Shown: positions 9,114 through 41,377 of the stretch, piece by piece
Position numbering within the stretch: the stretch's first letter is position 1
How the letters are laid out: each line of letters opens with the position of its first letter
Assembly: GCA_963848445.1 (NCBI GenBank)
Contig: CAWKDT010000001.1
Location: 842,667-906,666 of the forward strand
DNA length: 64,000 nucleotides
From: Candidatus Dormiibacterota bacterium
GTDB lineage: Bacteria; Chloroflexota; Dormibacteria; Aeolococcales; Aeolococcaceae
Direction of reading: 5' to 3'
Notes under the pieces: model-generated
Seen by the model: the letters and a program-made list of their open reading frames with translations, nothing else
Told to the model about the DNA's origin: nothing
Databases searched by the model: none
Position numbers and translations under genes: made by a program

Positions 9114-10370
9114 ATGCCGCGACCATCCGCTGACGTCGACCGCACCGCAGCACCGCGCGAATCCCCCGAGCCCGCCACATACCGGCGCCTCCTGCGCGTC
9201 CGCGGACTGCTGCCGCTGCTGCTCAGCTCGCTCCTGACCAGGACCGCGACGCAGATGTGGACGGTCGGGATCGTTCTGTTCACGCTGGAGCGGTATCACT
9301 CGCCGAGCGTCGCGGGCATCAGCATCTTCGTGCTCATCTTCCCGGGCCTGACGGTGAGCCCGATCGCGGGAGCGCTGCTCGACCGTCACGGCCGCAAGCG
9401 CCTCATGCGCCTCGACTTCACTGTTGCGGCGACGTGCCTCACGACGATCGTCACGCTCGCCGCCACCGGCCACCTGCCCGTCTGGGGCCTGCTGCTGCTG
9501 CTCGGATTCGGCTCCCTGACGAGCACGCTGAGCAACGCCGGCGCTCGGTCGCTGTACCCGCTGATCATCCCCACCGACCTGTGGGACCGCGGCAATGCCG
9601 CGGACAGCACCATCTTCGGCATCGCCGCGATCCTCGGCCCGGGTCTCGCCGGCACGCTCATCGCCGCATTCGGCAGCGAGGCCGCCCTCGCGGGCGCCGC
9701 CGCCGCATATGTCGTCGGCGCGGTGGCGCTGCAGGGGGTGCCCGAGCCCGTGCGCACGGGCAAGGTGTCGGCACGCATCCTCACCGAGGCGTGGCGGGGC
9801 CTCCACTACGTCGTGACCAACGCCACCCTGCGGTGGATCGCGATCGCGGTGTCCATCCTGAACATCGGGTGGGGCATGATCATCGTCGCGCTGCCGGTCG
9901 TGGTCCTCCGGCTCCACGGCAGCGCCGCACTGGTCGGCACGCTCCTCGCGATCGAGGGGGGCATCGGCATCCCGGCGGCGCTCATCGCCGGACGTCTGCG
10001 GACCCAGGGACGCGAGCGGCACATCATGGCCGCCACGAGCGTGATCATGGGCCTGGCGGTGCTCACGCTACTGGTCCCCTCGATCGCGGTGATCGCGCTC
10101 GGCATCGCGATCGTCGGCGCGGCCGACGGTCCCTCGAACATCTCCATGTTCTCCCTGCGCCAGCGACGGACCAACCGCGCCTGGTACGGCCGTGCGTTCG
10201 CGGTGTCCATGAGCCTCAACTTCGCGGGCGTCCCGATCGGCTCGGCCGTCGCCGGGACGCTGCTCGGCGTGTCGATCCCCTTCACGATCGTGCTGTCGGC
10301 CGCTCTGGCGGTCGGAGCGGGCGTGCTGATGCTCGTGATGATCCCCGCCGCGGCACCGCGTCCGGCCTGA
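9114..10370 (+). CDS. MFS transporter (12-TM, EntS/MFS_1-like)
   Basis: Repeated hydrophobic helices. Motif DRHGRKRLMRLD resembles the MFS loop 2-3 signature. Start chosen at the MPRPSAD Met. Confidence 0.75.
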   Translation: MPRPSADVDRTAAPRESPEPATYRRLLRVRGLLPLLLSSLLTRTATQMWTVGIVLFTLERYHSPSVAGISIFVLIFPGLTVSPIAGALLDRHGRKRLMRLDFTVAATCLTTIVTLAATGHLPVWGLLLLLGFGSLTSTLSNAGARSLYPLIIPTDLWDRGNAADSTIFGIAAILGPGLAGTLIAAFGSEAALAGAAAAYVVGAVALQGVPEPVRTGKVSARILTEAWRGLHYVVTNATLRWIAIAVSILNIGWGMIIVALPVVVLRLHGSAALVGTLLAIEGGIGIPAALIAGRLRTQGRERHIMAATSVIMGLAVLTLLVPSIAVIALGIAIVGAADGPSNISMFSLRQRRTNRAWYGRAFAVSMSLNFAGVPIGSAVAGTLLGVSIPFTIVLSAALAVGAGVLMLVMIPAAAPRPA

Positions 10371-25777: not shown

Positions 25778-26824
25778 CTACGGTGCCTCGAGCACTATCT
25801 TCCCGCGCAGCTCTCCGCGCGCCATCTCGCCGAAGGCCGCACGCGCATCGTCGAGGCGATGCGTGGAACCGATGAGGGGGCGCAGCGCTCCTGTCGCGCA
25901 GAGATCGACGAGCCGGCGAAGCTCGCCACGGGTCCCCATCGTGCTCCCGGCGACCGTGATGTTGCGGAAGAAGATGCGGTTGAGCTGCGCCGGCGGATTC
26001 GGCCCCCCGGTCGATCCCGGCACCACGACGGTGCCGCCGGGGCGCACGGCGCGGAGGCTCAGGTCCCAGGTCGGCTCGCCGACGGTGTCGATCACCGCGT
26101 CGACGCCGATGCCGCCGGTGGCGCCGACGACGGCGCGAGCCGTCTCGCGCTCGACCGGATACGCGGCCTCGGCGCCGAGGTCCACTGCAAACGCTCGCTT
26201 GGCCTCGTCCCGCGAGGTCGCGTACACCGTGACCCCCGCGAGCCGGCAGAGCAGGATGCAGGCGGTCGCGACACCGCCGCTCGCACCCTGGACGAGCACG
26301 CTCATCCCGGGGCGGAGGCCGGCGCGCGTGAAGAGCCCGCGGTACGCGGTCAGGTACGCCGTGGGCAGGCACGCGGCCTCGGCGAAGCTCACCTGGTCGG
26401 GGATCGCGACGAGGTTCGCGGCGGGGACCTCGACGAACTCGGCAAAGCCGCCGGCCAGCGGGGGCTCGCTCAGCATGCGGAAGGAGCGGCACCCGAGCGG
26501 ATCGTCGCTGAGGCATGCCGGGCAGTGCCCGCAGGTCGAGATCGGGTACACGACGACCCTGGCTCCCACCGGCGGCGCTCCGGCCGGGGGATCGCCGCCA
26601 TAGCCGGCGACCTCGCCGGCGGCGTCGCAGCCGAGGATCTGAGGCGGGGTCACGGTCGCCGACGACACCCCCCGCAGCGTCCAGAGGTCGTGATGGTTGA
26701 GCGACGCGGCGCGCATCTTGACCAGCGCCCACCCGGGACGCGTCTCGGGCGCCGGCATCTCTCCGATGGCGAGGTTCGCGAGCGGGTCCTCGCCACCCAC
26801 CGCCGCCGCATACACCGCCAGCAT
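25778..26824 (-). CDS. zinc-binding alcohol dehydrogenase / quinone oxidoreductase family (MDR superfamily)
   Basis: GroES-like N-domain with CGHCPAC. Rossmann motif GASGGVATACILLCRLAG. Lies divergent to metF. Confidence 0.75.
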   Translation of the reverse strand: MLAVYAAAVGGEDPLANLAIGEMPAPETRPGWALVKMRAASLNHHDLWTLRGVSSATVTPPQILGCDAAGEVAGYGGDPPAGAPPVGARVVVYPISTCGHCPACLSDDPLGCRSFRMLSEPPLAGGFAEFVEVPAANLVAIPDQVSFAEAACLPTAYLTAYRGLFTRAGLRPGMSVLVQGASGGVATACILLCRLAGVTVYATSRDEAKRAFAVDLGAEAAYPVERETARAVVGATGGIGVDAVIDTVGEPTWDLSLRAVRPGGTVVVPGSTGGPNPPAQLNRIFFRNITVAGSTMGTRGELRRLVDLCATGALRPLIGSTHRLDDARAAFGEMARGELRGKIVLEAP

Positions 26825-26848
26825 TGGCGGACCGTAGCATGGTGCGCG

Positions 26849-27739
26849 ATGCGTCTCGATACCGTGCTTGAACGACGGCAGCAGCCGGTGTTCTCGTTCG
26901 AGTTCTTCCCCCCGAAGACCGACGACGGGGTGCGTCAACTGTTCGAGACGCTCTCGCATCTGCGCGAGCTCGAGCCGACCTTCGTGTCGGTCACGTACGG
27001 CGCCGGCGGATCGGTGCGTACACGTACCGTCGAGCTGGTCACTCGAATCCGGCGTGAGCTCGACATCGAACCGGTGGCGCACCTCACGTGCGTCGAGGCG
27101 ACCGTCGACGACCTCTGCGAGGTCCTCGACCGGCTCCGCGATTCGGGGATCGACAACGTGCTCGCGCTCCGTGGAGATCCACCCGACGGCGTCGAACGGT
27201 TCGTCGCCCCCGAGGGAGGGCTGGCGCACGGTAGCGACCTCATCGAGCTGATCGCGTCCAGGTACGGCTTCTGCGTCGGCAGCGCGTGCTATCCGGAGAA
27301 GCATCCCGAGTCGGCTGACGCTCAGGAGGATGTGCGCTCAGCGAAGCGCAAGGCCGATATGGGCGCGAGCTACCTCATCACCAACCTGTTCTTCGACAAC
27401 CGCCCGTACTTCGAATTCGTCGCGCGGGCGCGCGCCGCCGGCATCACCGTGCCGATCATCCCCGGCATCATGCCGGTGACCAACGTGAGCCAGATCAAGC
27501 GGTTCACGTTGAAGATCGGCGCGACGATCCCCGATGCCCTGCTCGAGGCGCTGCACTCGCGTCAGGATGATCCCGACGCCGTCCTGCAGCTCGGTGTGGC
27601 GTGGGCGACGCTGCAGTGCGCCGAGCTCCTGGCCGGGGGCGCCCCCGGCATCCACTTCTTCACGATGAACCGCTCGCCGGCGACGCGCGCCATCCTTTCG
27701 GCGCTGCGTGCCGCGCGGCCCTGGGATCGGGTGCGTTAG
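26849..27739 (+). CDS. metF: 5,10-methylenetetrahydrofolate reductase
   Basis: FSFEFFPPKT...VTYGAGGS...LTC...NVLALRGDPP...GIHFFTMN signatures of MetF. Confidence 0.85.
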   Translation: MRLDTVLERRQQPVFSFEFFPPKTDDGVRQLFETLSHLRELEPTFVSVTYGAGGSVRTRTVELVTRIRRELDIEPVAHLTCVEATVDDLCEVLDRLRDSGIDNVLALRGDPPDGVERFVAPEGGLAHGSDLIELIASRYGFCVGSACYPEKHPESADAQEDVRSAKRKADMGASYLITNLFFDNRPYFEFVARARAAGITVPIIPGIMPVTNVSQIKRFTLKIGATIPDALLEALHSRQDDPDAVLQLGVAWATLQCAELLAGGAPGIHFFTMNRSPATRAILSALRAARPWDRVR

Positions 27740-27755: not shown

Positions 27756-28883
27756 TCACGGGGATGGCGACGGAGAGGGGGACGCGGAGGGTGACGGCGA
27801 CGGGCTGACCGTGACGGTGCCCGCCGTCGGGCTTGCAGCGGGTGACGGTGAGGGCGTCGGACTGGGCGCGGGTGTCGGCGGCGGGACCGCCGAGGCTGCC
27901 GGCGACGGCTGCACCGCGGGAGCGATCGGCAGGAGCGCTGCGACCACCTCGGCGGGGAGCCCGGGAAGCCCGCCGCTCACCGGGTCGGCCGGGGCCTCGA
28001 CGTCGATGTACCCGAAGGACGGCTTCGCGAAGTCCAGACGGCCCTTGAGGGCGGCGAGCGTCTCGATCTGCGCCGGCAGGCCCGCGAGGGCAGCATCGGT
28101 GTCGAGGTGGCCGAGGACCACGCGCCACCCCGCGCTCGTCCAGAGGCTCACGACGTCGTCCGCACCCCAGAGATACGCCGCGACCGAGCACCCGAACACC
28201 CCGTGGAACCGCTGGGCGATCGTCCCGAGCAGCTGCACGAGCCGGGGGTCGAGCGCCTGGGGAGTCCCGGTGCGATCGTCGATGAGCACCGGGATGCCCC
28301 GCCGCGCCGCCGGCGTCGCATCGCTCCCCGGGAGGGTCGCGCCATCCGATGCGACCAGGGTGTCGGTCCCGTCACGGCGGATGCGCAGCATCGGGGCCCG
28401 CTCGACGACCGAGATGCGGACGGTGGCCGGCAGCTGCATGCTGACGACGGCGTTCTCGACCCACGGCAGGGCCAGGACGCGGCTCTGGATCGCCTCGCCG
28501 TTGACGGTGAAGATGCTCTCTTCGGGAACCTCGGCCGCTGCCACCACCGCGCCGGTGGTGAGCAGGTGGGTGCCGGTCACCGTCACCGAGCGGACCTGGA
28601 AGGTCGGCAGCGTCAGCGCGAGCCCCAGGAGCGTGAGCTGCACGACGAGCGCGGTGACCGCGACCACCCGCCGCCGCCAGGAGGTCCGCCGCCTCGCCGG
28701 CTGAGGCGTGGGCGGGGGCTGGACTCCCCGTCCGTGGCGTCGCCTGCGCTGCGATGGGTTGAGCCGCACGCCGGGGCTGACGGCCAACCGCCGAACCGGA
28801 CGCGACGCGTCGGCGATGAGCGCCGCCTGCGCGCGGACGAGGGCGACGTGGCGCGCCTCCTCGTCGAGCATGTCGCTGCTCAC
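27756..28883 (-). CDS. ftsQ: cell division protein FtsQ/DivIB with a low-complexity Pro/Ser/Ala C-terminal tail
   Basis: Single TM followed by POTRA-like and FtsQ-type domains (VRSVTVTG...PWVENAVV). Position is between ddl and ftsA. C-terminus is PSPSPSASPSPSPSP. Confidence 0.75.
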   Translation of the reverse strand: MSSDMLDEEARHVALVRAQAALIADASRPVRRLAVSPGVRLNPSQRRRRHGRGVQPPPTPQPARRRTSWRRRVVAVTALVVQLTLLGLALTLPTFQVRSVTVTGTHLLTTGAVVAAAEVPEESIFTVNGEAIQSRVLALPWVENAVVSMQLPATVRISVVERAPMLRIRRDGTDTLVASDGATLPGSDATPAARRGIPVLIDDRTGTPQALDPRLVQLLGTIAQRFHGVFGCSVAAYLWGADDVVSLWTSAGWRVVLGHLDTDAALAGLPAQIETLAALKGRLDFAKPSFGYIDVEAPADPVSGGLPGLPAEVVAALLPIAPAVQPSPAASAVPPPTPAPSPTPSPSPAASPTAGTVTVSPSPSPSASPSPSPSP

Positions 28884-28969
28884 GAGGCGCGGTCAGTACG
28901 GGAGGGACGGTGCATGGACGCAGGCTGAGATGTGTGGTGGAACGTCGCGGCCGCACGCGGCCCGCTCGA

Positions 28970-30664
28970 TTATCCCCCAGGCGGAGCCGGCGTGACCGGC
29001 CTCGCACGGGCGCCCCGGGCGGCGGGGAGATACGTGTCGGGCAGGTCGTTGGCGAACAGGACGACGTCGCCGGGGCGGGCAAAGGTCTGGAGCACGGCCG
29101 TCGCCTCGTCGAGCGTGTCGACCAAGTGGACGCGGTCGTCGCCCAGGCCGCCCTCACGCAATCCGCCGCGAAGCGCGCCGCTCGTCCTCGCCGACATCAC
29201 GATCACGTGGTCGCAGACCTGTGCGGCGTGGGCCCCGTAGCGGCGGTTCTCCTCGTCCTCGACGCTGCCGAGCTCGACGAGCCCCGGGGTCACGAGGAAC
29301 TTCGCGCCACCCGTCATCGCCGCGAGCACCTCGAGCCCGTTGTGCACGCCGACCGGGTTCGCGTTGTACGAGTCGTCGATGACCGTCAGCGGCCCGGTGG
29401 TCGCCATCAGCTGCAGGCGGTGCTCGACCGGCGCCAGCGATGCCGCCGCGGCGATGGCGGCGTCGATCGAGTAGCCGAGCACGTGCACCGCGGCGAGCGC
29501 GGCGCTGGCGTTGGCGACCTGATGGCGGCCGAGCAGCGGCACCGTCACCGCCCGATCCAGACCCTCCGCCGCCCAGCGCCATCGAAACGCGCAGCCGTGG
29601 GAATCGATGCGCACCGACGAGGCGACCACCTCGGCATCGACAGCATCGGCGCCGCCGTCGATCGCGTATCGGATGAGCCGTCGGTGCGCTCCAGCCCCGC
29701 GCCGGGCGAGCGCCGCACCCGCATCGTCGCCCGTGTAGACGATCCAGGCGCCGTCGTCGGGAAGCGCGGCCACGACCTCGTACATCGCGTCCGCGATGCG
29801 ATCCAGCGTGCCGAAGCGCTCCATGTGCTGCGGGCCGACGGCGGTCGTGATCGCGACACGCGGGTGCACCAGCGCGCTCATGGCGGCGATCTCCCCCAGC
29901 GCGTAGGCATCCATCTCGACGACGAAGACGCGATGCTCCGGCAGGAGATCCTCGTTGATCACGCGGCTCACGCCCATCAGCGTGTTGAAGCTCTTGCGGG
30001 TCGGCAGCGTCGTGACGCTCGGTTCCAGAAGGTGCGCCAGGATGTGCTTCGTGCTGGTCTTGCCGAAGCTGCCCGCCACGGCGACGACGAGCGGATCGAC
30101 CGCGGTCAGGCGCCGCTGTGCGAGCGTGAGGTAGTGACGGCGGATCCGAGCCTCGGCGGGCTTCGTGACAACATTGGCAGCAACGAGGAGGACCTCGCTG
30201 AGCGACGTCACGAGCCCTGCCGCGATGAGCACGAGCACGACCGACACCACCGGGTGCAGTGCCACGATGCCGAGCGCGAGGCCCGCGGCGAGGATCACCG
30301 CGAGGAACCCACCGGCGACCAGCAGGCGCCGCATCCTGGCCGTCATCACGAGCGGCCGCTTGGCCGCGGTCCAGCGCCAGGTCACCTGCGCCGCCGCGGC
30401 GGACGCCAGCCACGCAACGGCGATCGCGACCGGTCGCGCCGCCGGGAAGACCGCCGCGACGGCGAACGCGATCACCGCAACACCGAGCCCGAGCCACACC
30501 GCCCGATGGGCGAGCCACTCGCGGGTCAGCCCCCAGCGCAGGAACCGGATCGACTCGTACTCCTCGATCTGGAACATGCGCGCGGCGACGAGCACGATGC
30601 GCGCGACGAGGATGAGCCACATCACCGCCGCGATCGCGACGAGCGGGCCGAGCAGCGGGCTCAC
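28970..30664 (-). CDS. murF: MurF-like UDP-MurNAc-tripeptide--D-Ala-D-Ala ligase. Central and C-terminal domains are fused to an N-terminal membrane domain of about 190 aa (about 5 TM helices).
   Basis: P-loop VAVAGSFGKTSTK. MurF-specific DDSYNANP motif. The distance from P-loop to C-terminus matches E. coli MurF. The N-terminal 190 aa are hydrophobic helices (LLGPLVAIAAVMWLILVARIVLV, AVWLGLGVAVIAFAVAAVF, LLVAGGFLAVILAAGLALGIVAL, VVSVVLVLIAAGLVTSL) with strong GC3 coding signal. GTG start overlaps the upstream hydrolase stop (GTGA). Confidence 0.75.
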   Translation of the reverse strand: MSPLLGPLVAIAAVMWLILVARIVLVAARMFQIEEYESIRFLRWGLTREWLAHRAVWLGLGVAVIAFAVAAVFPAARPVAIAVAWLASAAAAQVTWRWTAAKRPLVMTARMRRLLVAGGFLAVILAAGLALGIVALHPVVSVVLVLIAAGLVTSLSEVLLVAANVVTKPAEARIRRHYLTLAQRRLTAVDPLVVAVAGSFGKTSTKHILAHLLEPSVTTLPTRKSFNTLMGVSRVINEDLLPEHRVFVVEMDAYALGEIAAMSALVHPRVAITTAVGPQHMERFGTLDRIADAMYEVVAALPDDGAWIVYTGDDAGAALARRGAGAHRRLIRYAIDGGADAVDAEVVASSVRIDSHGCAFRWRWAAEGLDRAVTVPLLGRHQVANASAALAAVHVLGYSIDAAIAAAASLAPVEHRLQLMATTGPLTVIDDSYNANPVGVHNGLEVLAAMTGGAKFLVTPGLVELGSVEDEENRRYGAHAAQVCDHVIVMSARTSGALRGGLREGGLGDDRVHLVDTLDEATAVLQTFARPGDVVLFANDLPDTYLPAARGARARPVTPAPPGG

Positions 30665-31446
30665 GACACCGCTCCGGTCGCCTGATCGCGGAGGAAGACG
30701 TCGACGATCGTGCAGAAGCGGACGGGTTGCTCCAGGTACGCGTAGTGACCCGCGCCCTCGAACACCACGAGGCCGGCATCGGGGATGAGGCGCTCCATCA
30801 GCCGGCCGTCGGCCAGCGGCGTCTCGGTGTCCTGCTCGCCCCAGATCAACAGCGTCGGCACGCGCACCTCCGGGAGCAGCGAGCGGAGGTCCTCGTTGAC
30901 GAGCCGGACGAGCGTGCCCCGCATCGTCCCCGACGCCGCGCGATAGTCGACCGAGCCGCGCATGTCCGCGCGGCGCCCCGCGCCGCGACGGAGCGCGCCG
31001 GGCAGCGCGCCGGTGCGCTCCACCGCACGGAGCGCCTTGTACGAGCGGACGCGCACGGTGTCGCGGACGGTTCGGCGCGGACGGATCCCGGCGCTGCCGG
31101 TCAGCACCAACCTGCGGATCCGCTCCGGGTGCGAGGCGGCCATCACGATCCCGATGCGGCCGCCGTTGGAGTGGCCGATGACGTCGCAACGCTCGATCCC
31201 GAGACGCTGGAGCAGCGCGAAGCACCACGCCGCGTACTCGTGCGCCGACCACGGGACGTCGGGCTCCGGAGTGCCGCCGAAGCCGGGGACGTCCGGAACG
31301 ATGAGCTCCCGCCCCGGCTGCAGCGCATCGAGGATCGGCACGAAGAGCTCCCCGCTGACCCCCCAGCCGTGCAGCAGCAGCAGGGGCAGTCCGGCGCCGC
31401 GGACCCGCACCTGTGCGGCCGGGACCTCCGAAACGCGTTCGCTCAT
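30661..31446 (-). CDS. alpha/beta-fold hydrolase (Ser-Asp-His triad; BioH/MenH-like)
   Basis: HGWGVSGELF oxyanion region. Nucleophile elbow GHSNGG. Asp in WGEQDTETP. His in GAGHYAYLEQP. Confidence 0.8.
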   Translation of the reverse strand: MSERVSEVPAAQVRVRGAGLPLLLLHGWGVSGELFVPILDALQPGRELIVPDVPGFGGTPEPDVPWSAHEYAAWCFALLQRLGIERCDVIGHSNGGRIGIVMAASHPERIRRLVLTGSAGIRPRRTVRDTVRVRSYKALRAVERTGALPGALRRGAGRRADMRGSVDYRAASGTMRGTLVRLVNEDLRSLLPEVRVPTLLIWGEQDTETPLADGRLMERLIPDAGLVVFEGAGHYAYLEQPVRFCTIVDVFLRDQATGAVS

Positions 31447-31474: not shown

Positions 31475-32679
31475 TCAGGCCGGCTTGCCGGTGAGCAGCC
31501 ACGTGTCGATGGAGAAGGTCGTCTCCTGCCGCTCGTGATGCCGCGCCATGCCGAGATCGACCAGCCGGAGCAGCAGGTCCTCGAAGGGCAGTCCCGACGC
31601 CTCCCAGAGATAGAACGCGAGGGAGCCGGGCACCGTGTTCAGCTCGTTGACGACAAACGAATCCCGCTCCAGGTCGACGAGGAAGTCGACGCGCGTCACC
31701 CCCGCGGCGCCGATCGCGCGAAAGGCGGCGACCGCCGCGTCCTGGATGCGCGTGGCAAGTGCTTCGGGTATGGGCGCAGGGATGATCCGCTGCGCGCTCT
31801 TCATGCCCGTCGCGGGCCCTTTCGCGGCGGCTTTCCCCTTGCCACCGCTCAGGTACTTGTCGGCATAGCTCAGCGTGCCGCTGCTCACGGGCTGCTCGCA
31901 CACCGAGACGCGCACGTCTTCCCCGGAGCCGAGGACCGAGCAGTTGATCTCGACGATCCCCTCGAGCGCGGGCTCGGCGAGGACGTCGGCGTCGTACCGG
32001 AACGCGAGGTCGAGGGCGTCGAGCAGCTGCCGGCGATCGATGACGTGCACCACGCCGATGCTCGAGCCGAGGGTTCGCGGCTTCACGTACATCGGATAGC
32101 CGGGATGCGTCTCGAGCTCCGCGCACATCACCTCGGCGCCATCGCGCCAGCGGGCGCGCGACACGGCGACGTCATCGAGCACGGGGACTCCCGCGCCGCG
32201 GAGCGTCGTCCGCGCCAGCCGTTTGTCCATGCTCACCGCCGCCGCGGCCACACCGCACCCGCAGTACGCGACACCCGCCAGCTCGAGGAGACCCTGCAGC
32301 GTGCCGTCCTCCCCGTTCGACCCGTGGATGAGGGGCAGCGCAATGTCGAACTGTGCGGCCGCGCGCGGCGCGCCGCCGAGCAGCCCCCGGCGAGAGGCGG
32401 CGTCGACGAGCTCCCCGCCGGCCCCGGGCTCCGGATGCATGGTGACCCGGGTCGACGCGGCGATGAGCCGGTCGATGTCGCGATAGCGCTCGAGGTCGAG
32501 GAGCGGCGTTCCCGTGTACCAGGCGCCGGATTTGGCGATGTAGACGGGCACCGGCGTCATCCGGTCGGCGGGCATCGCCGCCATCGCCTGCTGGGCCGTG
32601 ATCACCGAGACCTCGTGCTCGACCGACCGTCCGCCGAAGAAGACGCCGACCCTGATCGCGCCGCTCACGGGACACCGCT
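31475..32679 (-). CDS. ddl: D-alanine--D-alanine ligase
   Basis: ATP-grasp fold. Omega-loop YADKYL keeps the Tyr typical of D-Ala-D-Ala ligases (not D-Ala-D-Lac). GTG start overlaps the murB end. Confidence 0.85.
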
Positions 32680-33597
32680 CGCGATCGGCTGCAACTCCTG
32701 CCGCCCGACCACGATGATCTCGCGCTCGAGGTCGATCCCGAACCGCGTGCGCACCTCCGCGTGGGCGAGTGCTACGAGCTCGAGCACATCCGCGGCGGTC
32801 GCGTGATCGACGTTCACGATGAAGTTGGCGTGCTTCGGCGAGATCTGCGCGCCACCGAGGCGGCGTCCCTTGAGCCCCGCCGCTTCCACGAGGCGTCCCG
32901 CCTTGTCGTCGGGCGGGTTCTTGAAGACGCTGCCGAGGCTCCGGATGCCATACGGCTGCGAGGCTTTGCGCTGGCTCTGGATCGCATCCGTGCGCGCGCG
33001 GACGGCCGCGGCGTCCTCGCGATGCACGCGCAGCCTGGCGCTCACCACAACATGGTCGCGGAGGTCGTCCTTGAAACGCGAATGGCGGTACGCGAAACCA
33101 CACTCCGCGGCGGTGAGCGTCAGCGGATGGCCGGCCGGATCGAGGGCCGTGCAGTCGATGACGACGTCCGCCATCTCGGTGCCGAAGGCGCCCGCGTTGC
33201 CATACACGCTCGCCCCGCAGGTGCCGGGCACCCCGATGCCGAACTCGAGCCCCGCGATGCCCCGCGAAGCGCAGTCGAGCGCCACGCGCGGCATCATGCA
33301 ACCGCCGCCGAGCTCGACGCTGCCGTCATCGATCACCCGCAGCGTCCGGTCGTCGTGGCGGATCACCAGCCCGTCGATGCCGCCGTCGCCGATGAGCGTG
33401 TTGCTCCCGGCCCCCAGCATGGTCACGACAACTCCCGTGTCGTGGCAGCGCGCGAGCAACCGGCCCAGCGCGGCCGCGTCGTGCGTGGTGGTGAACCACC
33501 GCGCGGGACCGCCGACGCCGAACTGGCTGTGGCGCGCGAGGGACTCGTCGCGCCGCACGCCGGGGACCGTGTCGAGCCAGTCACCGCCGGACACCAT
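32665..33597 (-). CDS. murB: UDP-N-acetylenolpyruvoylglucosamine reductase
   Basis: FAD-binding domain (GVGGPA...LGAGSN) and MurB C-terminal domain. Confidence 0.85.
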   Translation of the reverse strand: MVSGGDWLDTVPGVRRDESLARHSQFGVGGPARWFTTTHDAAALGRLLARCHDTGVVVTMLGAGSNTLIGDGGIDGLVIRHDDRTLRVIDDGSVELGGGCMMPRVALDCASRGIAGLEFGIGVPGTCGASVYGNAGAFGTEMADVVIDCTALDPAGHPLTLTAAECGFAYRHSRFKDDLRDHVVVSARLRVHREDAAAVRARTDAIQSQRKASQPYGIRSLGSVFKNPPDDKAGRLVEAAGLKGRRLGGAQISPKHANFIVNVDHATAADVLELVALAHAEVRTRFGIDLEREIIVVGRQELQPIASGVP

Positions 33598-34987
33598 GCG
33601 CCTCCAGGGCGCCGCGCAGCCGCGGCGCCAGCTTGTCGAAGCCACCGAGGGAGAGCACGAGCACGACGTCTCCCGGACGGGTCATCCGGGTGACCACGTC
33701 GAGTGCCTCCTCACTCGACGCGACAACATGGACCTCCGCGTGCGCGCCGACCCGTGCCGCGACATCATCGCTCGACACGATCTTCGGCATCCCCCGCTCG
33801 CGCGCCTCCTCGATGGGGCCGATCACCACGACGTCGGCTCCCGCGAAGCTGGTGCGGTAGTCCTCGAGGAGACGGCTCACCCGGGAGTACGTGTGCGGCG
33901 TGTGGATCGCGATCAGCCGGTGTCCCGCATATCGCTGGCGGGCGGCGTCGATCGCAGCGGCAACCTCGGTCGGGTGGTGCGCATAGTCGTCGACCACGGT
34001 CACCCCGTTGATGTCACCGAGGATCTGGAAGCGGCGCGCCGGCCCTCGGAAGTCGGCGCACGATGCGGCGGCGACCTCGGCGCCGACGCCCACCTGCTCC
34101 GCGAGGATCAGCGCCGCGCACGCGTTCTGCGCGTTGTGGATCCCGGGAAACGTGAGGCGGACCTCCAGCGGTGCGACCCCCTCGCGCTGCACCGCGAAGC
34201 GCTGCAGGCCGTGCTGCTCGCGCGCGTCGAGGATGCGCCAGTCGCTCTCCGGATTCGTGCCATAGGTGACTGCAACGCAGCTGGCGGCGGAGCGCAGCGC
34301 AAGGCACTCCGGGTCATCGGCGCAGAGCGCGAGCATGCCCGATGCCGGCATCGTCGAGGCGAGTTCGATGAACGGCGCGCGATACGCGTCGAGATCGGCG
34401 TACACGTCGGGATGGTCCAGCTCGAGGCGGGTGACGCACGCGGCGTGCGGCCGCGTGTGGAGGAACTTCGGACGCCGATCCCAGGGCGCCGACGTGTACT
34501 CGTCGCCCTCGAAGACGAACGGCCCGGTGCCGAGCCGCGAGGTGCCGCCCAGGTCGAGCGATGTGGAGCCCAGCCGGAACCCGGGGTCGAGGCCGGCGCG
34601 CTCGAGGATGTGGACGAGAAGCGCCGACGTGGTGGTCTTGCCATGGGTGCCACAGACGGTGAGCCGGGTCCGCTGCCCGGCGAGGCTGACATAGAACTCG
34701 ATCTCGCTCACGCACGGGAGGCCGCGCTCTCGTACGGCCGCAAGCTCCGGGTTGGACGGACGAGTCTGGTTCCCGACGACGACCAGATCGGGCACCCCCC
34801 AGCGGTCGAGATTCGCAGGATCGCTCCGGTTCTCCCACCGGATGCCCGCCGCGGTGACGGCGTCGCTCATCGGCGGATACGCGTGGTCGTCCGAGCCCGT
34901 GACCCGATCCCCGCGATCCAGCGCCAGCTGCGCGGCGCCGAAGGTCGCGTAGCCGCAGATGCCCAGCACATGGACGTGTCTGCTCAC
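33581..34987 (-). CDS. murC: UDP-N-acetylmuramate--L-alanine ligase
   Basis: VCGTHGKTTTSAL P-loop. DDYAHHP MurC signature. Confidence 0.85.
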   Translation of the reverse strand: MSRHVHVLGICGYATFGAAQLALDRGDRVTGSDDHAYPPMSDAVTAAGIRWENRSDPANLDRWGVPDLVVVGNQTRPSNPELAAVRERGLPCVSEIEFYVSLAGQRTRLTVCGTHGKTTTSALLVHILERAGLDPGFRLGSTSLDLGGTSRLGTGPFVFEGDEYTSAPWDRRPKFLHTRPHAACVTRLELDHPDVYADLDAYRAPFIELASTMPASGMLALCADDPECLALRSAASCVAVTYGTNPESDWRILDAREQHGLQRFAVQREGVAPLEVRLTFPGIHNAQNACAALILAEQVGVGAEVAAASCADFRGPARRFQILGDINGVTVVDDYAHHPTEVAAAIDAARQRYAGHRLIAIHTPHTYSRVSRLLEDYRTSFAGADVVVIGPIEEARERGMPKIVSSDDVAARVGAHAEVHVVASSEEALDVVTRMTRPGDVVLVLSLGGFDKLAPRLRGALEAHGVRR

Positions 34988-36090
34988 GCCGCTCTGCTCC
35001 GCCGGCCCGCTCCCGCCGCCTCGACGATGAGGCGCACCACCGATTCGGTCGCGTCCGGGAGGCCGAGGGCGGCGCTCGCCGCGGCCATGCGCCGCCAGCG
35101 CGGAGGATCGGCGATCAGCGCGCCGATCTCGGCGCCGAGCCGGGCGGGGGTGCACTCGGCGTCATCGATGATCAGCGCCGCGCCCGCGTCGGCGTAGGGC
35201 GCCGCGTTGTGCCGCTGGTGGCCGCCGGCGTGCGGGTACGGCACCACGATCATCGGTCGTCCGAGGACCGCGCACTCGGCGATGGACGATCCTCCGGCGC
35301 GCATGACCACGAGATCGCTGGCCGCCATGCGAGCCGCCATGTCGTCGAAGAACGCATCCTCCGTGTACCGGGCGGCGAGCGCGGGCGGCAGGGCCGCCGC
35401 GGCGATGGCGACCGCCTCGTGATCGAGGCTGCCGCACTGATGCACGATGCGAAGCTCCGGGTCGTCGCTCAGCAGCTTCACCATGGAGCCGGTCACCGCC
35501 CGGTTGAGGCGCCGCGCACCCTGCGACCCCCCGGTCACCAGGATCGAGCGGAGGCGGTCGCCGATCGGACGCGGGCGCACGGACCGCACCTCCGCGCGGA
35601 TCGGGTTGCCGGTGTGGACCACTCGGGCGTGGGGCAGGTACCGGGCGGTCTCGGCGAACGAGGCGGCGACAACCCGCGCTCGCCGGGCGAGCAGCCGGGT
35701 CGCCCTGCCCGGGACGGCGTTCTGCTCGAGCAGCACCACGGGAATCTGCTGGGCGAGCGCGGCGACGACCACGGGCACCGAGACGTAGCCACCCGAGCCG
35801 ACCACGACGTCGGGTCGCATCCGCCGCACCAGGCGTCGGGCCTCGAGGGTGGCCCGGGTCAGCTGGCTTGCCGCCCGAGCCATGCCGCCCGGGGTGCCCG
35901 CGTGCACGCCGCTCACGTCCAGGGTCTCCAGGCGAAGTCCCGCCGCGACCACCAGGCGCTCGGCCACCCCGTCGCGGCGGCCGACCACGGCCACCTCCGC
36001 GTCAGGTCGTGCGTCGCGCAGCGCCAGGGCGACCGCCAGTGCCGGGGTCAGGTGGCCCCCAGTACCCCCCCCGGCGATCAACGTGCGCAC
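34984..36090 (-). CDS. murG: undecaprenyldiphospho-muramoylpentapeptide beta-N-acetylglucosaminyltransferase
   Basis: IAGGGTGGH N-terminal motif. GT-B fold. GTG start inferred. Confidence 0.85.
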   Translation of the reverse strand: MRTLIAGGGTGGHLTPALAVALALRDARPDAEVAVVGRRDGVAERLVVAAGLRLETLDVSGVHAGTPGGMARAASQLTRATLEARRLVRRMRPDVVVGSGGYVSVPVVVAALAQQIPVVLLEQNAVPGRATRLLARRARVVAASFAETARYLPHARVVHTGNPIRAEVRSVRPRPIGDRLRSILVTGGSQGARRLNRAVTGSMVKLLSDDPELRIVHQCGSLDHEAVAIAAAALPPALAARYTEDAFFDDMAARMAASDLVVMRAGGSSIAECAVLGRPMIVVPYPHAGGHQRHNAAPYADAGAALIIDDAECTPARLGAEIGALIADPPRWRRMAAASAALGLPDATESVVRLIVEAAGAGRRSRAA

Positions 36091-37288
36091 GATTCGTCGC
36101 TCCCTGCCGGCGGCCCTGGGCGGAGATGTTGAGCAGAATGCCCATGCCCACGAGGGAGGTCGCCAGCGAGGTGCCACCGTAGCTGATGAAGGGCAGCGGG
36201 ATGCCCGTCGTCGGGATGACCCCGGTCACGGCGCTCACGTTGATGAACGCCTGCATGCAGATCCACGATGTGATGCCTCCCGCGAGCAGGGCGCCGAATC
36301 GGTCCGGCGCGCGCAGCGAGGCGCGCACACCGCGCCACGCCAGGAAGAGAAACGCCCCGAGCACCGCGACGGTTCCGATCAGCCCGAGCTCCTCGCCGAT
36401 GATCGCGAAGATGAAGTCGGTGTGCGCCTCGGGCAGCCACTCGTACTTCTGCACCGAGTTGCCGAGGCCGACCCCGAAGATCCCGCCGGAGCCGAAGGCG
36501 TAGAGCGCCTGGCAGTTCTGGAACCCCGACCCGAGGGCGTCCGCGCACGGGTTGAGGAAGTGGGCGAGCCGATCCGCGCGATAGGAGACGAGCCCGACGA
36601 GGGCGACGCCCGCCACGCCGAACATCGCGACGATGAGGACGAGGTGCCGCTTCCGGGCGCCGGCGAGCGCCAGCAGGATCAGGGCGGTCGTGGCGATGAC
36701 GATCGAGCTGCCGAGGTCGCGTTCGGCCAGGACGAGCGCGAGGAGCATCCCGAGCACGATGAGGTAGTCGCGAACCCCCCGAAGGCTGCGCACCGAGCCC
36801 TCGCGGTCGGTGAGCCAGCGGGCGAAGAAGACCACCGCGACGCCGACCGCGATCGCGGACGGCTGCACGGACAGCGGGCCTATCTGGAACCACCGCTGCG
36901 CCCCGAAGTGCTGGGCGCCGACGTGCGGGACGAGCACCACCAGGAGGAGCAGGAGCACGAGGAACATGACCGGGCGAGCCAGCCTCGAGAGGCGGTGGTA
37001 GTCGAAGCGCGCGGCCACGACGAGCCCGACTCCCCCCATCACCGCGCCGAGGAGCTGGTGGGCGAAGAAGTAGTTGGGGTCGTTGTACCAGAGGTAGCCG
37101 AGCGCCTCGGACGCGCTGTAGACCATGACGAGACCGAATCCGACGAGCCCGACCACGACGATCATCAGCCACCCGTCGACCCCCGCTGCCGCGGCGACAC
37201 GATCGGCGGCGGCGAAGGCACCGGCGACCCGGCCGCCGGCGCGCCAGCGTCCGGCCAGCCCGGTGAGCCTGCCCGCGCGCGCTGCCAT
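36002..37288 (-). CDS. ftsW: peptidoglycan glycosyltransferase FtsW (SEDS family)
   Basis: 10-TM SEDS protein with the conserved PEAHTDFIFA and FISYGGTSL motifs. The C-terminal tail overlaps the murG start by about 88 nt. Confidence 0.8.
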   Translation of the reverse strand: MAARAGRLTGLAGRWRAGGRVAGAFAAADRVAAAAGVDGWLMIVVVGLVGFGLVMVYSASEALGYLWYNDPNYFFAHQLLGAVMGGVGLVVAARFDYHRLSRLARPVMFLVLLLLLVVLVPHVGAQHFGAQRWFQIGPLSVQPSAIAVGVAVVFFARWLTDREGSVRSLRGVRDYLIVLGMLLALVLAERDLGSSIVIATTALILLALAGARKRHLVLIVAMFGVAGVALVGLVSYRADRLAHFLNPCADALGSGFQNCQALYAFGSGGIFGVGLGNSVQKYEWLPEAHTDFIFAIIGEELGLIGTVAVLGAFLFLAWRGVRASLRAPDRFGALLAGGITSWICMQAFINVSAVTGVIPTTGIPLPFISYGGTSLATSLVGMGILLNISAQGRRQGATNRAHVDRRGGYWGPPDPGTGGRPGAARRTT

Positions 37289-38652
37289 CAGGCGTTGCTC
37301 ACGGGATGTGCGGCGAGCCCGCGGACCGCGCCGGCGAACGCGTCGCCCCGTTCCTCGAAGTTGTGGAACTGGTCGAAGCTCTTGTATCCAGGAGCGAGGA
37401 GCACCACGTCGCCCTGCTGCGCCACCCCCGCCGCCGCGATCACCGCGTCGGCAAGCGTCGCCACGACGATCCGGGCGGCGAACCCTCGTGCGGCGAGCGC
37501 CGCATCGAGCTCCATCGCGCTCGCGCCGTTGAGCACGGCGAGCCGCGCGTGGCGCACGACCTCGTCCGCAAGCGGCTCGATCGAGGTTCCGGCGCCCTTG
37601 CCGCCTCCGATCCACACGATCGTGCGCCCCGGAAAGGAGCGGAGCGCCGCGACCGCGGCGTCGACGTTGGTCGCCTTGCTGTCGTTCACCCAGAGGATGC
37701 CGCCGTCGTCCCGAACCGCCTGGAGGCGGTGGGCCACCGGCTGAAAGTCCCGCACGGCGCCGGCGATCGGCGAGCCCTCGACGCCGGCCGCGCGGGCGAC
37801 CGCCACCGCCGCGAGCACGTTCTCGAGGTTGTGCTCCCCGAAGAGGGGGATGTCGGCAACGGGGAACATGCGCGCGGCGACACCCGCCTCGACGCCGACC
37901 ACGTCACCGCCGTGCCGGGTCGCCCCATCCTCGATGCCGGGCTGCAGGCCGAAGTAGCGAACGCGGGAGCGTGCGACGCTCGCCATCTCCCTCGTGACCG
38001 GATCGTCGAAGCCGAGCACGGCATCGTCGAGCGCGAACCGCACCAGCCTGCGTTTGGTCTCCGCGTACGCGGCGAAGTCGCCGTGCCGGTCCAGGTGATC
38101 GGGGGTGACGTTGAGCACGCAGGCGATCGCGCAGCGGGGCTCGCGCACCGATTCGATCTGGAAGGAGGAGAGCTCGAGCACCACCCAGTCGCCGGGCGCC
38201 ACCGCGTCGAGCCGGTCCAGCATCGGCACCCCGATGTTGCCGCCCAGGTGCACGCGCTCCCCCGCGCGCTCGAGGATCGCCGCGACGAGCGCTGTGGTGG
38301 TCGTCTTGCCGTTGGTGCCGGTGATCCCGCAGATCCGCGCGCGGCAGCGTTCGAAGACCAGGTCCATCTCGCTGCGCACCGGGACGCCGTGGGCGCGTGC
38401 CGCCTCGAGCTCCGGTGCGTCCCAGGGCACCCCCGGGCTCGGGCAGACCATGAGCGCGTCCACCGCAACGTCCACCCCGTAGCCGCCGAGGCGAACCTCC
38501 ACCGATTCCGGCAGCATCGCGGTGCGCTCCCGGAGCTCGGGAGTGTCGGCGCGATCGACGAGCACCACGTGATGGCCCTCGCGTGCCAGCGTCGCCGCGC
38601 ACGCGAAGCCGCTCCGTCCCGCGCCGATCACCACGACCGGGTGGTCCGTCAC
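37288..38652 (-). CDS. murD: UDP-N-acetylmuramoylalanine--D-glutamate ligase
   Basis: ICGITGTNGKTTTT P-loop. NDSKATN MurD signature. GTG start overlaps the mraY stop (GTGA). Confidence 0.85.
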   Translation of the reverse strand: MTDHPVVVIGAGRSGFACAATLAREGHHVVLVDRADTPELRERTAMLPESVEVRLGGYGVDVAVDALMVCPSPGVPWDAPELEAARAHGVPVRSEMDLVFERCRARICGITGTNGKTTTTALVAAILERAGERVHLGGNIGVPMLDRLDAVAPGDWVVLELSSFQIESVREPRCAIACVLNVTPDHLDRHGDFAAYAETKRRLVRFALDDAVLGFDDPVTREMASVARSRVRYFGLQPGIEDGATRHGGDVVGVEAGVAARMFPVADIPLFGEHNLENVLAAVAVARAAGVEGSPIAGAVRDFQPVAHRLQAVRDDGGILWVNDSKATNVDAAVAALRSFPGRTIVWIGGGKGAGTSIEPLADEVVRHARLAVLNGASAMELDAALAARGFAARIVVATLADAVIAAAGVAQQGDVVLLAPGYKSFDQFHNFEERGDAFAGAVRGLAAHPVSNA

Positions 38653-39607
38653 GAGGCCACGCCGGCAACCCGGGCGAACAGCACGGTCACCGCGGTGCCG
38701 AGCGCGGCGGCGGCGGCGAAGCATGCGACGAGCCGCTGCTCGCGAAGCCCGAGCTCCTCGAAGTGATGATGGATCGGGCTTGCTCGAAGGACGCGACGGC
38801 CGAAGCGCCGGATGGCGGTCACGTTGATGACGACGCTCGCCGCCTCGACCACGAACACGATGCCGATCACGGGGAGCAGCCAGATCAGGTGGAGCTCCGC
38901 GGTGAGCGCCACCAGGGCGCAACCGAGGGCGAGCGACCCGGCGTCCCCCATGAAGACGCGCGCCGGGAACCAGTTGAAGATGAGGAACGCCACGACCGCG
39001 CCCGCGAGCGCCGCGGCGATGATCGCCACCGGCAGGTCGTCGCGGCTGACCGCGATGATCGAGATCCCGACGAGCACGAGCGCCATGCACGAGGCCGCGA
39101 GCCCGTCGACACCGTCGGTGAGGTTGACGGCGTTGCTGCTCGCCACCACCGCGATCGCCGCGACCACCGCAAGCCCCCAGCCGAGATCGGGCGCGCCGAG
39201 CCCCGGGAAGAACTGCTGCGTGAAGCCGGCGATCGTGAGGCCCACGCCGACGAGCACGCCGATGACGGCCTGCAGGCTCAGCTTCTGCCACACGGAGAGC
39301 CCCATCCTGGAGATGTCCCGGATGTTGATGACATCGTCGAGCCCGCCGGCGATCGCCCCGGCCGCGAGCGCGAAGACGACGAGGAACCCGGCCCTCGAGC
39401 GGTCGACGGCAAGCCAGGCGACGATCGCCACCAGGCAGAAGAGCGCCCCGCCCATGGTCGGCGTCCCCTCCTTGGCCCGGTGCGTGGCGGGGCTGTACGA
39501 CGCGACGTGCTGACGCGCCCTCGAGCGCACCAGCAGCCCGATGAACGCCGGGTACAGGATCACCCCCACGGCGAACGCGATCACGCCGACGACGATCGCC
39601 TGCCTCA
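38649..39607 (-). CDS. mraY: phospho-N-acetylmuramoyl-pentapeptide transferase
   Basis: GTPTMGG, NAVNLTDGVDGLAA, FMGDAGSLALG and SPIHHHFE motifs. GTG start overlaps the ftsI stop. Confidence 0.85.
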
Positions 39608-41377
39608 CGGCTCGATCCGCCACTGGTCGATCATCATCTCGGCCATCTGCTTCCAGATCGGCGCGGCGAGCAGCGATCCGAACCGGACCGAGAGCGGGGT
39701 CTGCGGATCGTTGAGGATCACCATCATCGTGAACTGGGGGTTCGTGGCAGGCATGAATCCGACGAAGGATGCCACGACGTTGGACCCGTAGCCCTTCCCG
39801 CCCGGGAGCGCCACCTGCGCGGTCCCGGTCTTGCCGGCGATCTCGGTGCTGTATCCGGGGATCTTCGCCTTGAACCCCTCGCCGTGCGGGTCGTTGACCA
39901 CGCCGACCATCATGTGCTCGAGCGTCGCAGCCGCCGCCGGCGCCATCACCCTCCGGGTGACCGGCGTGACCGGTGTTGTCGTCCCCGTGTTGGGGTTGAC
40001 GATCGCGTCGACGGCGTGCGGCTGCACCCACACGCCCCCATTGGCGACCGCGTTGATGGCGGCGAGCATCTCCACGGGGGTGGCGACGACGCCCTGACCG
40101 AACGAGGCGGTCGCGTACTTCAACTCGTTCCACTTCGACTGCGGCGGCAACGGGTCGTTCACCTCGCCCGCAAGGTCGACGCCGGTCGGCGCGCCGATGC
40201 CGAACGCGAGGAGGTTGGAGTAGAAGGCGTTGGCCCCCTCCATGCGCTGAGCGTCGATCGCACCGTTGTTGAGGGAGTCGTCGAGGACGAACTGCATCGT
40301 GACCTTGCCGTGCGAGTGGCCGTCCCAGTCGTGGATGAGGAACCCGTCGATGCGCTGCTGGCGCTCGTCGATGACGGTGGCCGGGGTGAAGGCGTTGTTG
40401 TTGAGGCCGCCGGCGAAGGTCACCACCTTCATGACGGATCCGGGCTCGTAGGGTTGTGAGACGGCGAGGTCACGGAAGTCCGCGACGTCGGCGTTGCCGA
40501 AGGCGTCGGCGTTGTACGACGGATACTGCGCCCACGCTCGGATCGCCCCGGTCTTCGTGTCCATGACCATCAGCGTCCCCGATGTCGCCTTCGTCGAGTT
40601 GACCCCGTCGGCGATGGCGATCTCGGCGTCGTACTGGATCTGCGAATCGAGGCCCAGCTCCAGGTTATCGCCATTCTTGGCAGGTACCTTCTGCTGGCGC
40701 CCCAAAACGATGGCGTTGCCGTTGACGTCGGTCAGCGTCGACTCGTGCCCGTTGATCCCCGAGAGGATCGAGTTGTAGTAGCCCTCGAGCCCGTACTGAC
40801 CGGTGCCGTTCGCATTGACGAAGCCGAGCAGGTTGGCTGCGAACGAGTCGCCCGGCACCGGCGACGGATCGTACAGGCTCTCCTCTGACGGCACCGTCCC
40901 GATGCCGCTGAGCCGGAGCGCCTGGAGCTTCTCGTTCACGTCCTGCGAGACGCCCTTGGCGAGATAGTCGAATTGATTGTTCTGGTCGATCGCCTTGAGC
41001 ACCTGCGCCGTGCTCACCTGGAGGATCGGCGCGATCATCCCCGCAACCGAATCGCGATCCCCGGCACTGATGAGGGCCGGGTCGGCAAAGACGTCGAACA
41101 CCTGGACGTTGCTCACGAGGACCCGTCCGTTGCGATCCAGGATGATCCCGCGGGTGGCGTGGAGCGTGACCGAGGTGGTGTGCGTCGACGCCGCCTCCGA
41201 CGCGAGCGCCTTGCCCTGGATCACCTGGATCTGGATGAGCCGCCCGAAGACCGCGGTGGCCATCGCCAGGAATGCCAGCACCAGCCAGAGGCCGCGCCGC
41301 CTGACGTCAGGCGAGTCGGCGAAGACGCGTACGCCGTTGGTTCCCGCCGTCCGCGGGGAACGACGGCGTGTGCTCAT
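39605..41377 (-). CDS. ftsI: penicillin-binding protein (class B transpeptidase, FtsI/PBP3-like)
   Basis: N-terminal TM and dimerisation domain. Transpeptidase motifs SVMK (SxxK) and KTGTA (KTG). By my count the stop codon is at 39604-39606; the ORF track lists 39605. Confidence 0.85.
   Translation of the reverse strand: MSTRRRSPRTAGTNGVRVFADSPDVRRRGLWLVLAFLAMATAVFGRLIQIQVIQGKALASEAASTHTTSVTLHATRGIILDRNGRVLVSNVQVFDVFADPALISAGDRDSVAGMIAPILQVSTAQVLKAIDQNNQFDYLAKGVSQDVNEKLQALRLSGIGTVPSEESLYDPSPVPGDSFAANLLGFVNANGTGQYGLEGYYNSILSGINGHESTLTDVNGNAIVLGRQQKVPAKNGDNLELGLDSQIQYDAEIAIADGVNSTKATSGTLMVMDTKTGAIRAWAQYPSYNADAFGNADVADFRDLAVSQPYEPGSVMKVVTFAGGLNNNAFTPATVIDERQQRIDGFLIHDWDGHSHGKVTMQFVLDDSLNNGAIDAQRMEGANAFYSNLLAFGIGAPTGVDLAGEVNDPLPPQSKWNELKYATASFGQGVVATPVEMLAAINAVANGGVWVQPHAVDAIVNPNTGTTTPVTPVTRRVMAPAAAATLEHMMVGVVNDPHGEGFKAKIPGYSTEIAGKTGTAQVALPGGKGYGSNVVASFVGFMPATNPQFTMMVILNDPQTPLSVRFGSLLAAPIWKQMAEMMIDQWRIEP

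Follow-up and report, generated by a model that had tools for sequence, protein, structure and literature searches.

The 64-kb window examined here, which is the whole stretch analysed and spans positions 842,667 to 906,666 of contig CAWKDT010000001.1 in assembly GCA_963848445.1 of a Candidatus Dormiibacterota soil bacterium, has a guanine plus cytosine (G+C) content of ~70% and carries a division and cell wall (dcw) gene cluster on a minus strand whose coding, as judged by third-position G+C, is uninterrupted from ~45.4 kb to 22.4 kb. Our subject is a pair of genes in that cluster, encoding an alpha/beta hydrolase and a MurF-like ligase whose N-terminal part is a transmembrane (TM) domain; we term the latter TM-MurF. 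Pfam scans of single open reading frames (ORFs) gave the gene identities of Table 1: the pair lies between ddl and ftsQ, and mraY comes directly after ftsI with no murE or murF between them, an arrangement already described in a first-pass annotation made without database searches and upheld by the scans and searches reported here. The reported overlap of the two genes was also found, the GTG start of the ligase (30664-30662) and the TGA stop of the hydrolase (30663-30661) sharing the GTGA at 30661-30664; the GTG start of ddl overlaps the murB stop likewise, in a GTGA of 4 nt.

The TM-MurF ORF is unbroken, and its third-position G+C stays at 0.84-0.97 in a single frame over both the TM part and the ligase part, which bears out the coding bias ascribed earlier to the hydrophobic portion. 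Pfam places Mur_ligase_M at residues 196-393 (E 1e-32) and Mur_ligase_C at residues 415-538, and has no match in residues 1-195. The top NCBIfam family is murF (TIGR01143, E 1.5e-56), aligned from profile position 58 onward only; MurT, CapB, cyanophycin synthetase and FolC were rejected as identities, their NCBIfam scores being marginal beside that of murF. phmmer against the PDB gave eight matches at E<=1e-10, each of them to MurF or to the MurF-like portion of a fusion protein, with alignments that begin at MurF residue ~96-102.

Structural comparison, a check proposed with the first-pass annotation, gave five TM helices and a ligase part nearest to MurF. The AlphaFold2 (AF2) model, built on 27 diverse homologues, has a mean predicted local distance difference test score (pLDDT) of 88.3 and a predicted template-modelling score (pTM) of 0.85. 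Foldseek ranks 1-9 in the PDB are all MurF (E 1e-26 to 7e-22; 26-29% identity), with 4qf5, 4cvm, 3zl8 and 1gg4 as the best matches, and MurE and MurC follow from 1e-18. In a pairwise alignment, residues 189-490 pair with residues 98-390 of Escherichia coli MurF (1gg4), so that the spacing from P-loop to C-terminus, which had been called identical to that of the E. coli enzyme, is approximately so; the last ~22 residues form a disordered tail in the model. The P-loop and the DDSYNANP motif that had marked the ORF as MurF are in place (Table 1), and the family shows no variation at E250 and H280, which belong to the motifs whose Glu and His bind Mg. By sequence and by fold the nearest relatives of the catalytic part of TM-MurF are MurF.

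Table 1. Positions in the window of the ligase features and of the surrounding genes
Feature	Coordinates	Strand	Basis and remarks
TM-MurF ligase, 564 aa, GTG start	28970-30664	-	Pfam Mur_ligase_M, Mur_ligase_C
N-terminal membrane domain, residues 1-175, five TM helices	30140-30664	-	hydropathy, positive-inside count, AF2
Loop motif Q-I/L-E-E-Y after TM1, residues 32-36, predicted cytoplasmic	30557-30571	-	Q32, Y36 invariant; W44 nearly
Basic loop motif K-(K/R)-P-L-V-x-T-x-R-x-x-R after TM3, residues 102-113, predicted cytoplasmic	30326-30361	-	T108, R110, R113 invariant; L105 nearly
ATP-binding P-loop GSFGKTSTK, residues 198-206	30047-30073	-	G198, S199, G201, K202, T203, K206 invariant in family
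Met294, at the position of E. coli MurF Lys202	29783-29785	-	alignment to 1gg4
MurF-type motif DDSYNANP, residues 430-437	29354-29377	-	D430, N436, P437 invariant; aligns to P. aeruginosa and E. coli MurF DDSYNAN
EstV-like alpha/beta hydrolase, 261 aa	30661-31446	-	Pfam Abhydrolase_1, Abhydrolase_6
ddl (module Ddl)	31475-32668	-	Pfam Dala_Dala_lig_N, Dala_Dala_lig_C
Upstream dcw genes ftsI, mraY, murD, ftsW, murG, murC, murB	32665-41377	-	Pfam, per ORF
ftsI	39605-41377	-	Pfam
mraY	38649-39608	-	Pfam
murD	37288-38649	-	Pfam
ftsW	36002-37297	-	Pfam
murG	34984-36177	-	Pfam
murC	33581-34984	-	Pfam
murB	32665-33645	-	Pfam
ftsQ (POTRA_1)	27756-28892	-	Pfam; 77 nt 3' of the ligase stop

The membrane domain and its loops

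Hydropathy and the AF2 model both place five hydrophobic helices within residues 1-168, and with the lack of any Pfam match there they sustain the earlier claim that the N-terminal domain of MurF has been exchanged for a five-helix membrane domain. In the model the helices span residues 5-33, 52-72, 74-95, 109-133 and 138-168 (pLDDT 89.8), and one unbroken helix, 152-189, links TM5 to the ligase domain. Lys and Arg number five, five and six in loops 29-54, 96-112 and 166-190, against none, one and none in the N-terminus and the two short hairpin loops; this clustering predicts that the N-terminus lies outside and the ligase in the cytoplasm. Two natural fusions of hydrolase and TM ligase, in opposite orders, back the predicted topology and would set the hydrolase on the cytoplasmic side as well: in P0166 the hydrolase is N-terminal and one extra TM helix is inserted after an Arg-rich linker, and in P0136 the hydrolase is placed after the cytoplasmic C-terminus of the ligase.

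Conservation in the loops was assessed on 27 representatives of 30-59% identity. Besides the residues of the two loop motifs given in Table 1, P169 is invariant among them. Within Dormibacterota (119 sequences) mean identity is 84% over the TM domain and 77% over the ligase part (29030-30139), the former being the better conserved. Invariant loop residues at ~30% identity, together with conservation above that of the ligase part, indicate that the membrane domain is functional, and more than a passive anchor.

A profile of the TM domain alone, run against a word-indexed protein collection, gave 17 matches, mostly short fragments of the TM-MurF family, and none of the 17 carries the domain in another architecture. 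Short products consisting of the TM domain only, or of hydrolase plus TM domain (P0288, P0266, P0291, P0292, P0299 and P0300), are encoded on contigs of 0.2-3 Mb; they are probably assembly frameshifts and not stand-alone TM proteins.

A three-gene module in many phyla

The closest homologues of TM-MurF are all from Candidatus Dormibacterota, where at least 120 are present in metagenome-assembled genomes (MAGs) at 75-99% identity; 119 of the 120 listed are near full length (at least 540 aa) and have a like gene cluster around them, and the order of dcw genes on other Dormibacterota contigs is that of the window. One protein, P0105 (78% identical), bears the source label Candidatus Saccharimonadales; all its close relatives being Dormibacterota, it probably comes from a mis-binned or mislabelled contig.

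The architecture is by no means peculiar to this genome or clade. When 1.84 billion cluster representatives were searched exhaustively, without a profile, 2177 matched TM-MurF at E<1e-30. Of the best 150, the majority have 520-565 aa and 31-62% identity and can be aligned from ~residue 8-30 to 545; they therefore share the TM domain. Loci were sampled as the best 80 on GTDB contigs, with one genome per species. They come from Chloroflexota (Dormibacterota, Ktedonobacterales, Anaerolineae and others), from Poribacteria, Acidobacteriota, Bacteroidota, Spirochaetes, Balneolales and Nitrospinota, from many Bacillota, including the cultured Gracilibacillus, Peptoniphilus and Pseudalkalibacillus, and from one Alphaproteobacteria MAG and one Bdellovibrionales MAG; no Campylobacterota locus is among the best 80. 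The TM-plus-ligase architecture spans more than 10 phyla. A search of a plasmid collection found no TM form, only canonical MurF or "Mur ligase family" proteins matched over the ligase part, and a mobile or resistance-island reading was dropped on that account.

Two partners recur beside the ligase. In 70 of 79 loci the gene directly upstream, in the same orientation, encodes an orthologous alpha/beta hydrolase, and with the fusions in both orders this confirms the coupling to a Ser-Asp-His hydrolase noted in the window. Clustering of neighbouring ORFs brought out the second, a DdlA-type ligase of ~395 aa in 67 of the 79, usually encoded directly downstream of the TM ligase; in Dormibacterota the order is ddl-hydrolase-ligase. 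Since a Ddl of this length is conserved as third partner, the window ddl is the module's own, and no bystander; the earlier view of it as an ordinary enzyme for D-alanyl-D-alanine (D-Ala-D-Ala) stands, its omega-loop Lys-Tyr being kept. The neighbour ORFs of the TM-MurF loci include no further conserved gene. Hydrolase, long Ddl and TM-MurF form a conserved three-gene module.

Two loci differ in detail. The P0166 fusion gene lies on a 7.3-kb contig (L085), with a gene for a YkuD-type L,D-transpeptidase (4295-5269) ~700 nt downstream; no Ddl is encoded on this contig. At a Ktedonobacterales locus (L006, 8292-9946) two tandem alpha/beta hydrolase genes stand upstream of the TM ligase, the nearer orthologous to the module hydrolase (E 2e-91) and the farther a distant paralogue (E 3e-18).

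The hydrolase of the window has an HGWG motif and a GHSNGG nucleophile motif with Ser93, completed by Asp206 and His234. The Ser-Asp-His triad and a G-S-x-D-Y cap motif are invariant in all 39 module hydrolases compared, as are HGWG and GHSxGG. All 39 match the NCBIfam model NF058580, "EstV family lipase" (best E 2e-47), at 92-160 bits, the window protein at 92, and none reaches the equivalog cut-off of 300. EstV itself we take to be HP0739 of Helicobacter pylori, encoded between ddlA (HP0738) and murF (HP0740). The closest solved structures are generic esterases. On its sequence the hydrolase is predicted to be cytoplasmic, catalytically intact and, as the fusions show, functionally coupled to TM-MurF.

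The window Ddl, 397 aa from a GTG start and of DdlA type, scores 291 bits against the D-Ala-D-Ala ligase subfamily model NF002528 (cut-off 262) and lies far under the cut-offs of all the NCBIfam Van ligase models. Its motifs EH..S, GEDG, KP..GSS.G, K-Y, R.D and NE.N..PG are conserved over 66 family members, and the omega-loop Lys-Tyr is kept in at least 90% of them. The omega-loop region of Ddl is reported to set specificity for the second substrate. Right after this Lys-Tyr comes a family-specific insertion of ~14 residues, GKGKAAAKGPATGM (within Ddl residues 269-300; window 31769-31864), whose last two residues, Gly-Met, recur in at least 90% of the 66; solved DdlA structures are without it, as in the comparison with Xanthomonas DdlA (3r5f).

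Three Mur-ligase ORFs lie in the 64 kb, those of murC, murD and TM-MurF. The window was searched with a P-loop regular expression and, by phmmer, with Ddl and three MurE queries: murE was not found, nor was any MurF-like gene besides TM-MurF or a further ddl. The 10 kb past its left end, as represented by the related contig L084, likewise held neither murE nor canonical murF nor another ddl. Just 3' of ftsQ the window has a zinc-type alcohol dehydrogenase gene (25778-27337, minus strand), and ftsA and ftsZ were not located in it. At another Dormibacterota locus (L001, 12923-14883) ftsQ is followed by an opposite-strand MTHFR gene, a zinc-type alcohol dehydrogenase gene, ftsA and ftsZ; the dehydrogenase would be an unusual interruption of a dcw cluster.

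Function of the membrane-anchored ligase

We think it probable, from sequence relationships and gene context, that TM-MurF is a MurF-equivalent, a D-Ala-D-Ala-adding ligase anchored in the membrane and working as a member of the three-gene module. In such a scheme Ddl would supply D-Ala-D-Ala, and TM-MurF, an inner-membrane protein whose catalytic domains face the cytoplasm, would use adenosine triphosphate (ATP) to activate the C-terminal carboxylate of the N-acetylmuramic acid (MurNAc)-tripeptide precursor and add the dipeptide at the inner membrane face, next to MraY. The five-helix domain, N-terminus out and C-terminus in, would stand in for the soluble domain 1 that binds uridine diphosphate (UDP), its conserved basic and acidic loops, Q-L-E-E-Y..R..W and K-K-P-L-V-Y-T-x-R-x-x-R, being placed so that they could bind the diphosphate-sugar end of the acceptor. 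The acceptor might be UDP-linked or undecaprenyl-diphosphate-linked, and the cytoplasmic hydrolase would work on the same substrate stream as TM-MurF. We infer the D-Ala-D-Ala-adding activity, the function of the loops and the role of the hydrolase alike from these data.

Gene position speaks for this assignment most directly in Poribacteria, where locus L007 reads rsmH ... ftsI-murE-(hydrolase-TM ligase-ddl)-mraY-murD-ftsW-murG-murC: the module sits exactly in the murF slot. In the Alphaproteobacteria MAG (L063) the only ORF between murE and mraY is one of 152 aa (9474-9932, minus strand), for which Pfam gave no match, and the cluster ends in the TM-MurF module, which stands tail-to-tail with murB. 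These two contexts, with the Campylobacterota literature discussed below, indicate that the TM module can act as MurF. In the window the module occupies the classical ddl position (murB-ddl-...-ftsQ), and in Dormibacterota TM-MurF is probably the housekeeping MurF of the cell, and may be its sole MurF. This would explain the absence of murF between ftsI and mraY; murE must then lie elsewhere.

Several observations weigh against the MurF-equivalent reading. The domain that binds UDP in solved MurF structures, domain 1, is absent from TM-MurF. The window protein scores 192.2 bits against TIGR01143, whose cut-off is 288.6; the Gracilibacillus protein scores 247. Dementin et al. are said to have found, in 2001, that Lys202 of E. 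coli MurF is carbamylated and functionally required, and at that position the window protein has Met294. Most of the wider TM-MurF family does have Lys there, in A-K-Y-E-L; Met, Leu or Ile, usually with Asp at -2, is characteristic of a Dormibacterota/Ktedonobacterales subclade. In three defining features TM-MurF falls short of MurF: it has no domain 1, it scores under the curated family threshold and, within this subclade, it lacks the lysine equivalent to Lys202. Canonical MurF chemistry, moreover, needs no hydrolase, which leaves a near-universal partner unexplained. Lastly, the Bacillota module lies in unrelated surroundings, beside nar genes in Gracilibacillus and beside genes for an H+-PPase and RNase R in Sedimentibacter, and may there be an accessory paralogue, an extra copy.

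Extended to the family, that last thought becomes a different account, which we regard as possible though on balance doubtful: the product of Ddl would be joined by the TM ligase to a carboxylate bound at the membrane, such as that of undecaprenyl-diphosphate-MurNAc-tripeptide (short-stemmed lipid I or II) or of some other lipid-linked precursor of the envelope; preparing or trimming this substrate would fall to the hydrolase, and the housekeeping work to a canonical pair of murE and murF at another place in the genome. The exchange of a UDP-binding domain for a conserved membrane domain with basic cytoplasmic loops, the obligatory hydrolase with no role in the classical pathway, and the siting of the module away from cell-wall genes in Gracilibacillus and Sedimentibacter all fit this account, as does the absence of murE too from the window, since murE and murF may have moved together. 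It is difficult to reconcile with a module placed exactly in the Poribacteria murF slot, with the empty murF slot alongside the module in the Alphaproteobacteria MAG, and with the H. pylori literature, in which the TM form is the essential MurF of that species.

A bolder version of the MurF-equivalent reading, which we consider unlikely, would have the TM domain bind MurNAc-tripeptide that is undecaprenyl-diphosphate-linked or presented by MraY, so that D-Ala-D-Ala is added at or after lipid I, with the hydrolase as an obligatory catalytic partner that, for instance, proofreads or trims the end of the stem peptide. If true, this membrane route would be a step, unrecognised and possibly essential, that is taken in Helicobacter and Campylobacter as well as in many further phyla.

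The first-pass annotation had speculated on precursor editing of the van type, in which D-Ala-D-X would be the product of the long Ddl, the usual terminus or dipeptide would be taken off by the hydrolase, and TM-MurF would put the alternative terminus in its place. The three activities of the module, those of dipeptide ligase, adding enzyme and hydrolase, do fit the logic of a van cluster, and the insertion with its conserved Gly-Met falls right behind the omega-loop Lys-Tyr. That Lys-Tyr is itself the D-Ala-D-Ala-typical pair, however, kept in at least 90% of family Ddls, and the enzyme scores above the D-Ala-D-Ala subfamily cut-off and far below every Van one. The neighbours scanned yielded neither a two-component regulator nor any domain of VanH, VanX or VanY type, and none of these is conserved beside the module across loci. 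The module was not found in the plasmid collection, and in Campylobacterota the system is a housekeeping one (PMC5530802). We hold editing of this kind to be very improbable.

An artefact, by frameshift or by chimeric joining of an unrelated membrane ORF to a truncated murF, is suggested by the frameshifted copies that some assemblies contain (the TM-only or hydrolase-plus-TM fragments P0288, P0266, P0291, P0292 and P0299), and is ruled out for practical purposes by the breadth of full-length homologues: the 119 near-full-length Dormibacterota proteins, 75-99% identical, come from independent assemblies, most of the best 150 diverse representatives align through the junction, third-position G+C is uniform over it, and the continuous AF2 helix 152-189 spans it. 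The assembly error entertained in the first-pass annotation has not been found.

MurF is by the textbook a soluble enzyme, and an antibiotic target. The membrane-embedded form is a large, multi-phylum family and no curiosity of one genome; should the hydrolase be required, or the acceptor be lipid-linked, the last cytoplasmic step of peptidoglycan precursor synthesis would differ in these organisms. If so, it would offer a lineage-selective drug target and would also explain the part of MurF in the membrane shape complexes of H. pylori. A membrane domain and a possibly essential partner enzyme are joined here to a classical antibiotic target, and the question can be put to tractable pathogens. 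For annotation, a "MurF" without domain 1 and an adjacent "lipase/esterase" should be read as one module.

Comparison with known systems

With canonical MurF (E. coli 1GG4, Pseudomonas aeruginosa 4CVM, Acinetobacter baumannii 4QF5) TM-MurF has in common the central ATP-binding and C-terminal domains, the P-loop, the Glu, His and Asn/Arg catalytic motifs and DDSYNANP, at 26-29% identity over ~370 positions, as well as linkage to ddl within a dcw cluster. It differs in that the UDP-binding domain 1 (~85-100 aa) is replaced by the five-helix membrane domain, in family motifs (TPGMVELG where canonical MurF has GDMxELG; a C-terminal ENDLPDxY), and in being nearly always accompanied by an alpha/beta hydrolase.

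MurT/GatD and CapB/PgsB also have a Mur-ligase fold without a UDP-binding domain, and a partner enzyme, and act either at the membrane or upon substrates that are polymeric or lipid-linked; one of the two acts on lipid II, and the other is membrane-anchored. TM-MurF resembles them as a Mur-ligase relative that lacks domain 1 and has a partner. Among the NCBIfam matches, however, the MurT model is marginal (E 2.5e-4) and no CapB-type match is listed; the catalytic motifs are of MurF type, unlike theirs; and the partners are an alpha/beta hydrolase and Ddl, as against a glutaminase (MurT/GatD) or PgsC/PgsA (CapB/PgsB).

Van-type clusters, with a VanA-type ligase, VanX/VanY and, in glycopeptide producers, MurF paralogues, likewise bring genes for dipeptide ligation, dipeptide addition and hydrolysis together. 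Their hydrolase has an M15 metallopeptidase fold in place of the alpha/beta fold of the module; the module Ddl, unlike their ligases, keeps the omega-loop Tyr and scores as a D-Ala-D-Ala ligase; and the module has neither VanH nor a regulator among the neighbours scanned, is chromosomal, and is housekeeping in some lineages.

The literature search returned no paper on the peptidoglycan genes of Dormibacterota, nor one treating TM-MurF as a family, and a published survey of MurE-MurF chimeras leaves TM forms unmentioned. In the literature searched we found no account of how widely the family is distributed, of its conserved loop motifs, of a three-gene module that includes a long Ddl, of hydrolase-ligase fusions in two orders, or of the module taking the murF slot. 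What is already known, though barely characterised, is a membrane-anchored MurF in H. pylori and a ddl/hydrolase/murF neighbourhood in Campylobacter jejuni; to that extent the N-terminal TM extension is, as the first-pass annotation had allowed it might be, a common and already described variant.

The MurF of H. pylori (HP0740; 1485 bp, ~494 aa) is essential and is described as an inner membrane protein (PMC6501431, PMC9448923, PMC9507126), with four predicted N-terminal TM helices according to PMC9448923, which cites Blair 2018. The window protein is likewise anchored by N-terminal TM helices, five as against the four reported there, and at 564 aa is the longer. In C. jejuni the genes of MurF (Cj0795c), an alpha/beta hydrolase (Cj0796c) and Ddl (Cj0798c) lie together, in the order ddl, alpha/beta hydrolase, murF that the window also has, and attempts to delete Cj0796c were unsuccessful, so that it is possibly essential (PMC5530802). 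EstV, a short-chain carboxylesterase of H. pylori (PMC3741291), gives its name to the family model that the module hydrolases match, well below its equivalog cut-off. Literature and gene order suggest that TM-MurF may belong to one family with the MurF of these two species, and by such likeness of description the window gene best fits the membrane-anchored MurF of H. pylori and the ddl/hydrolase/murF neighbourhood of C. jejuni.

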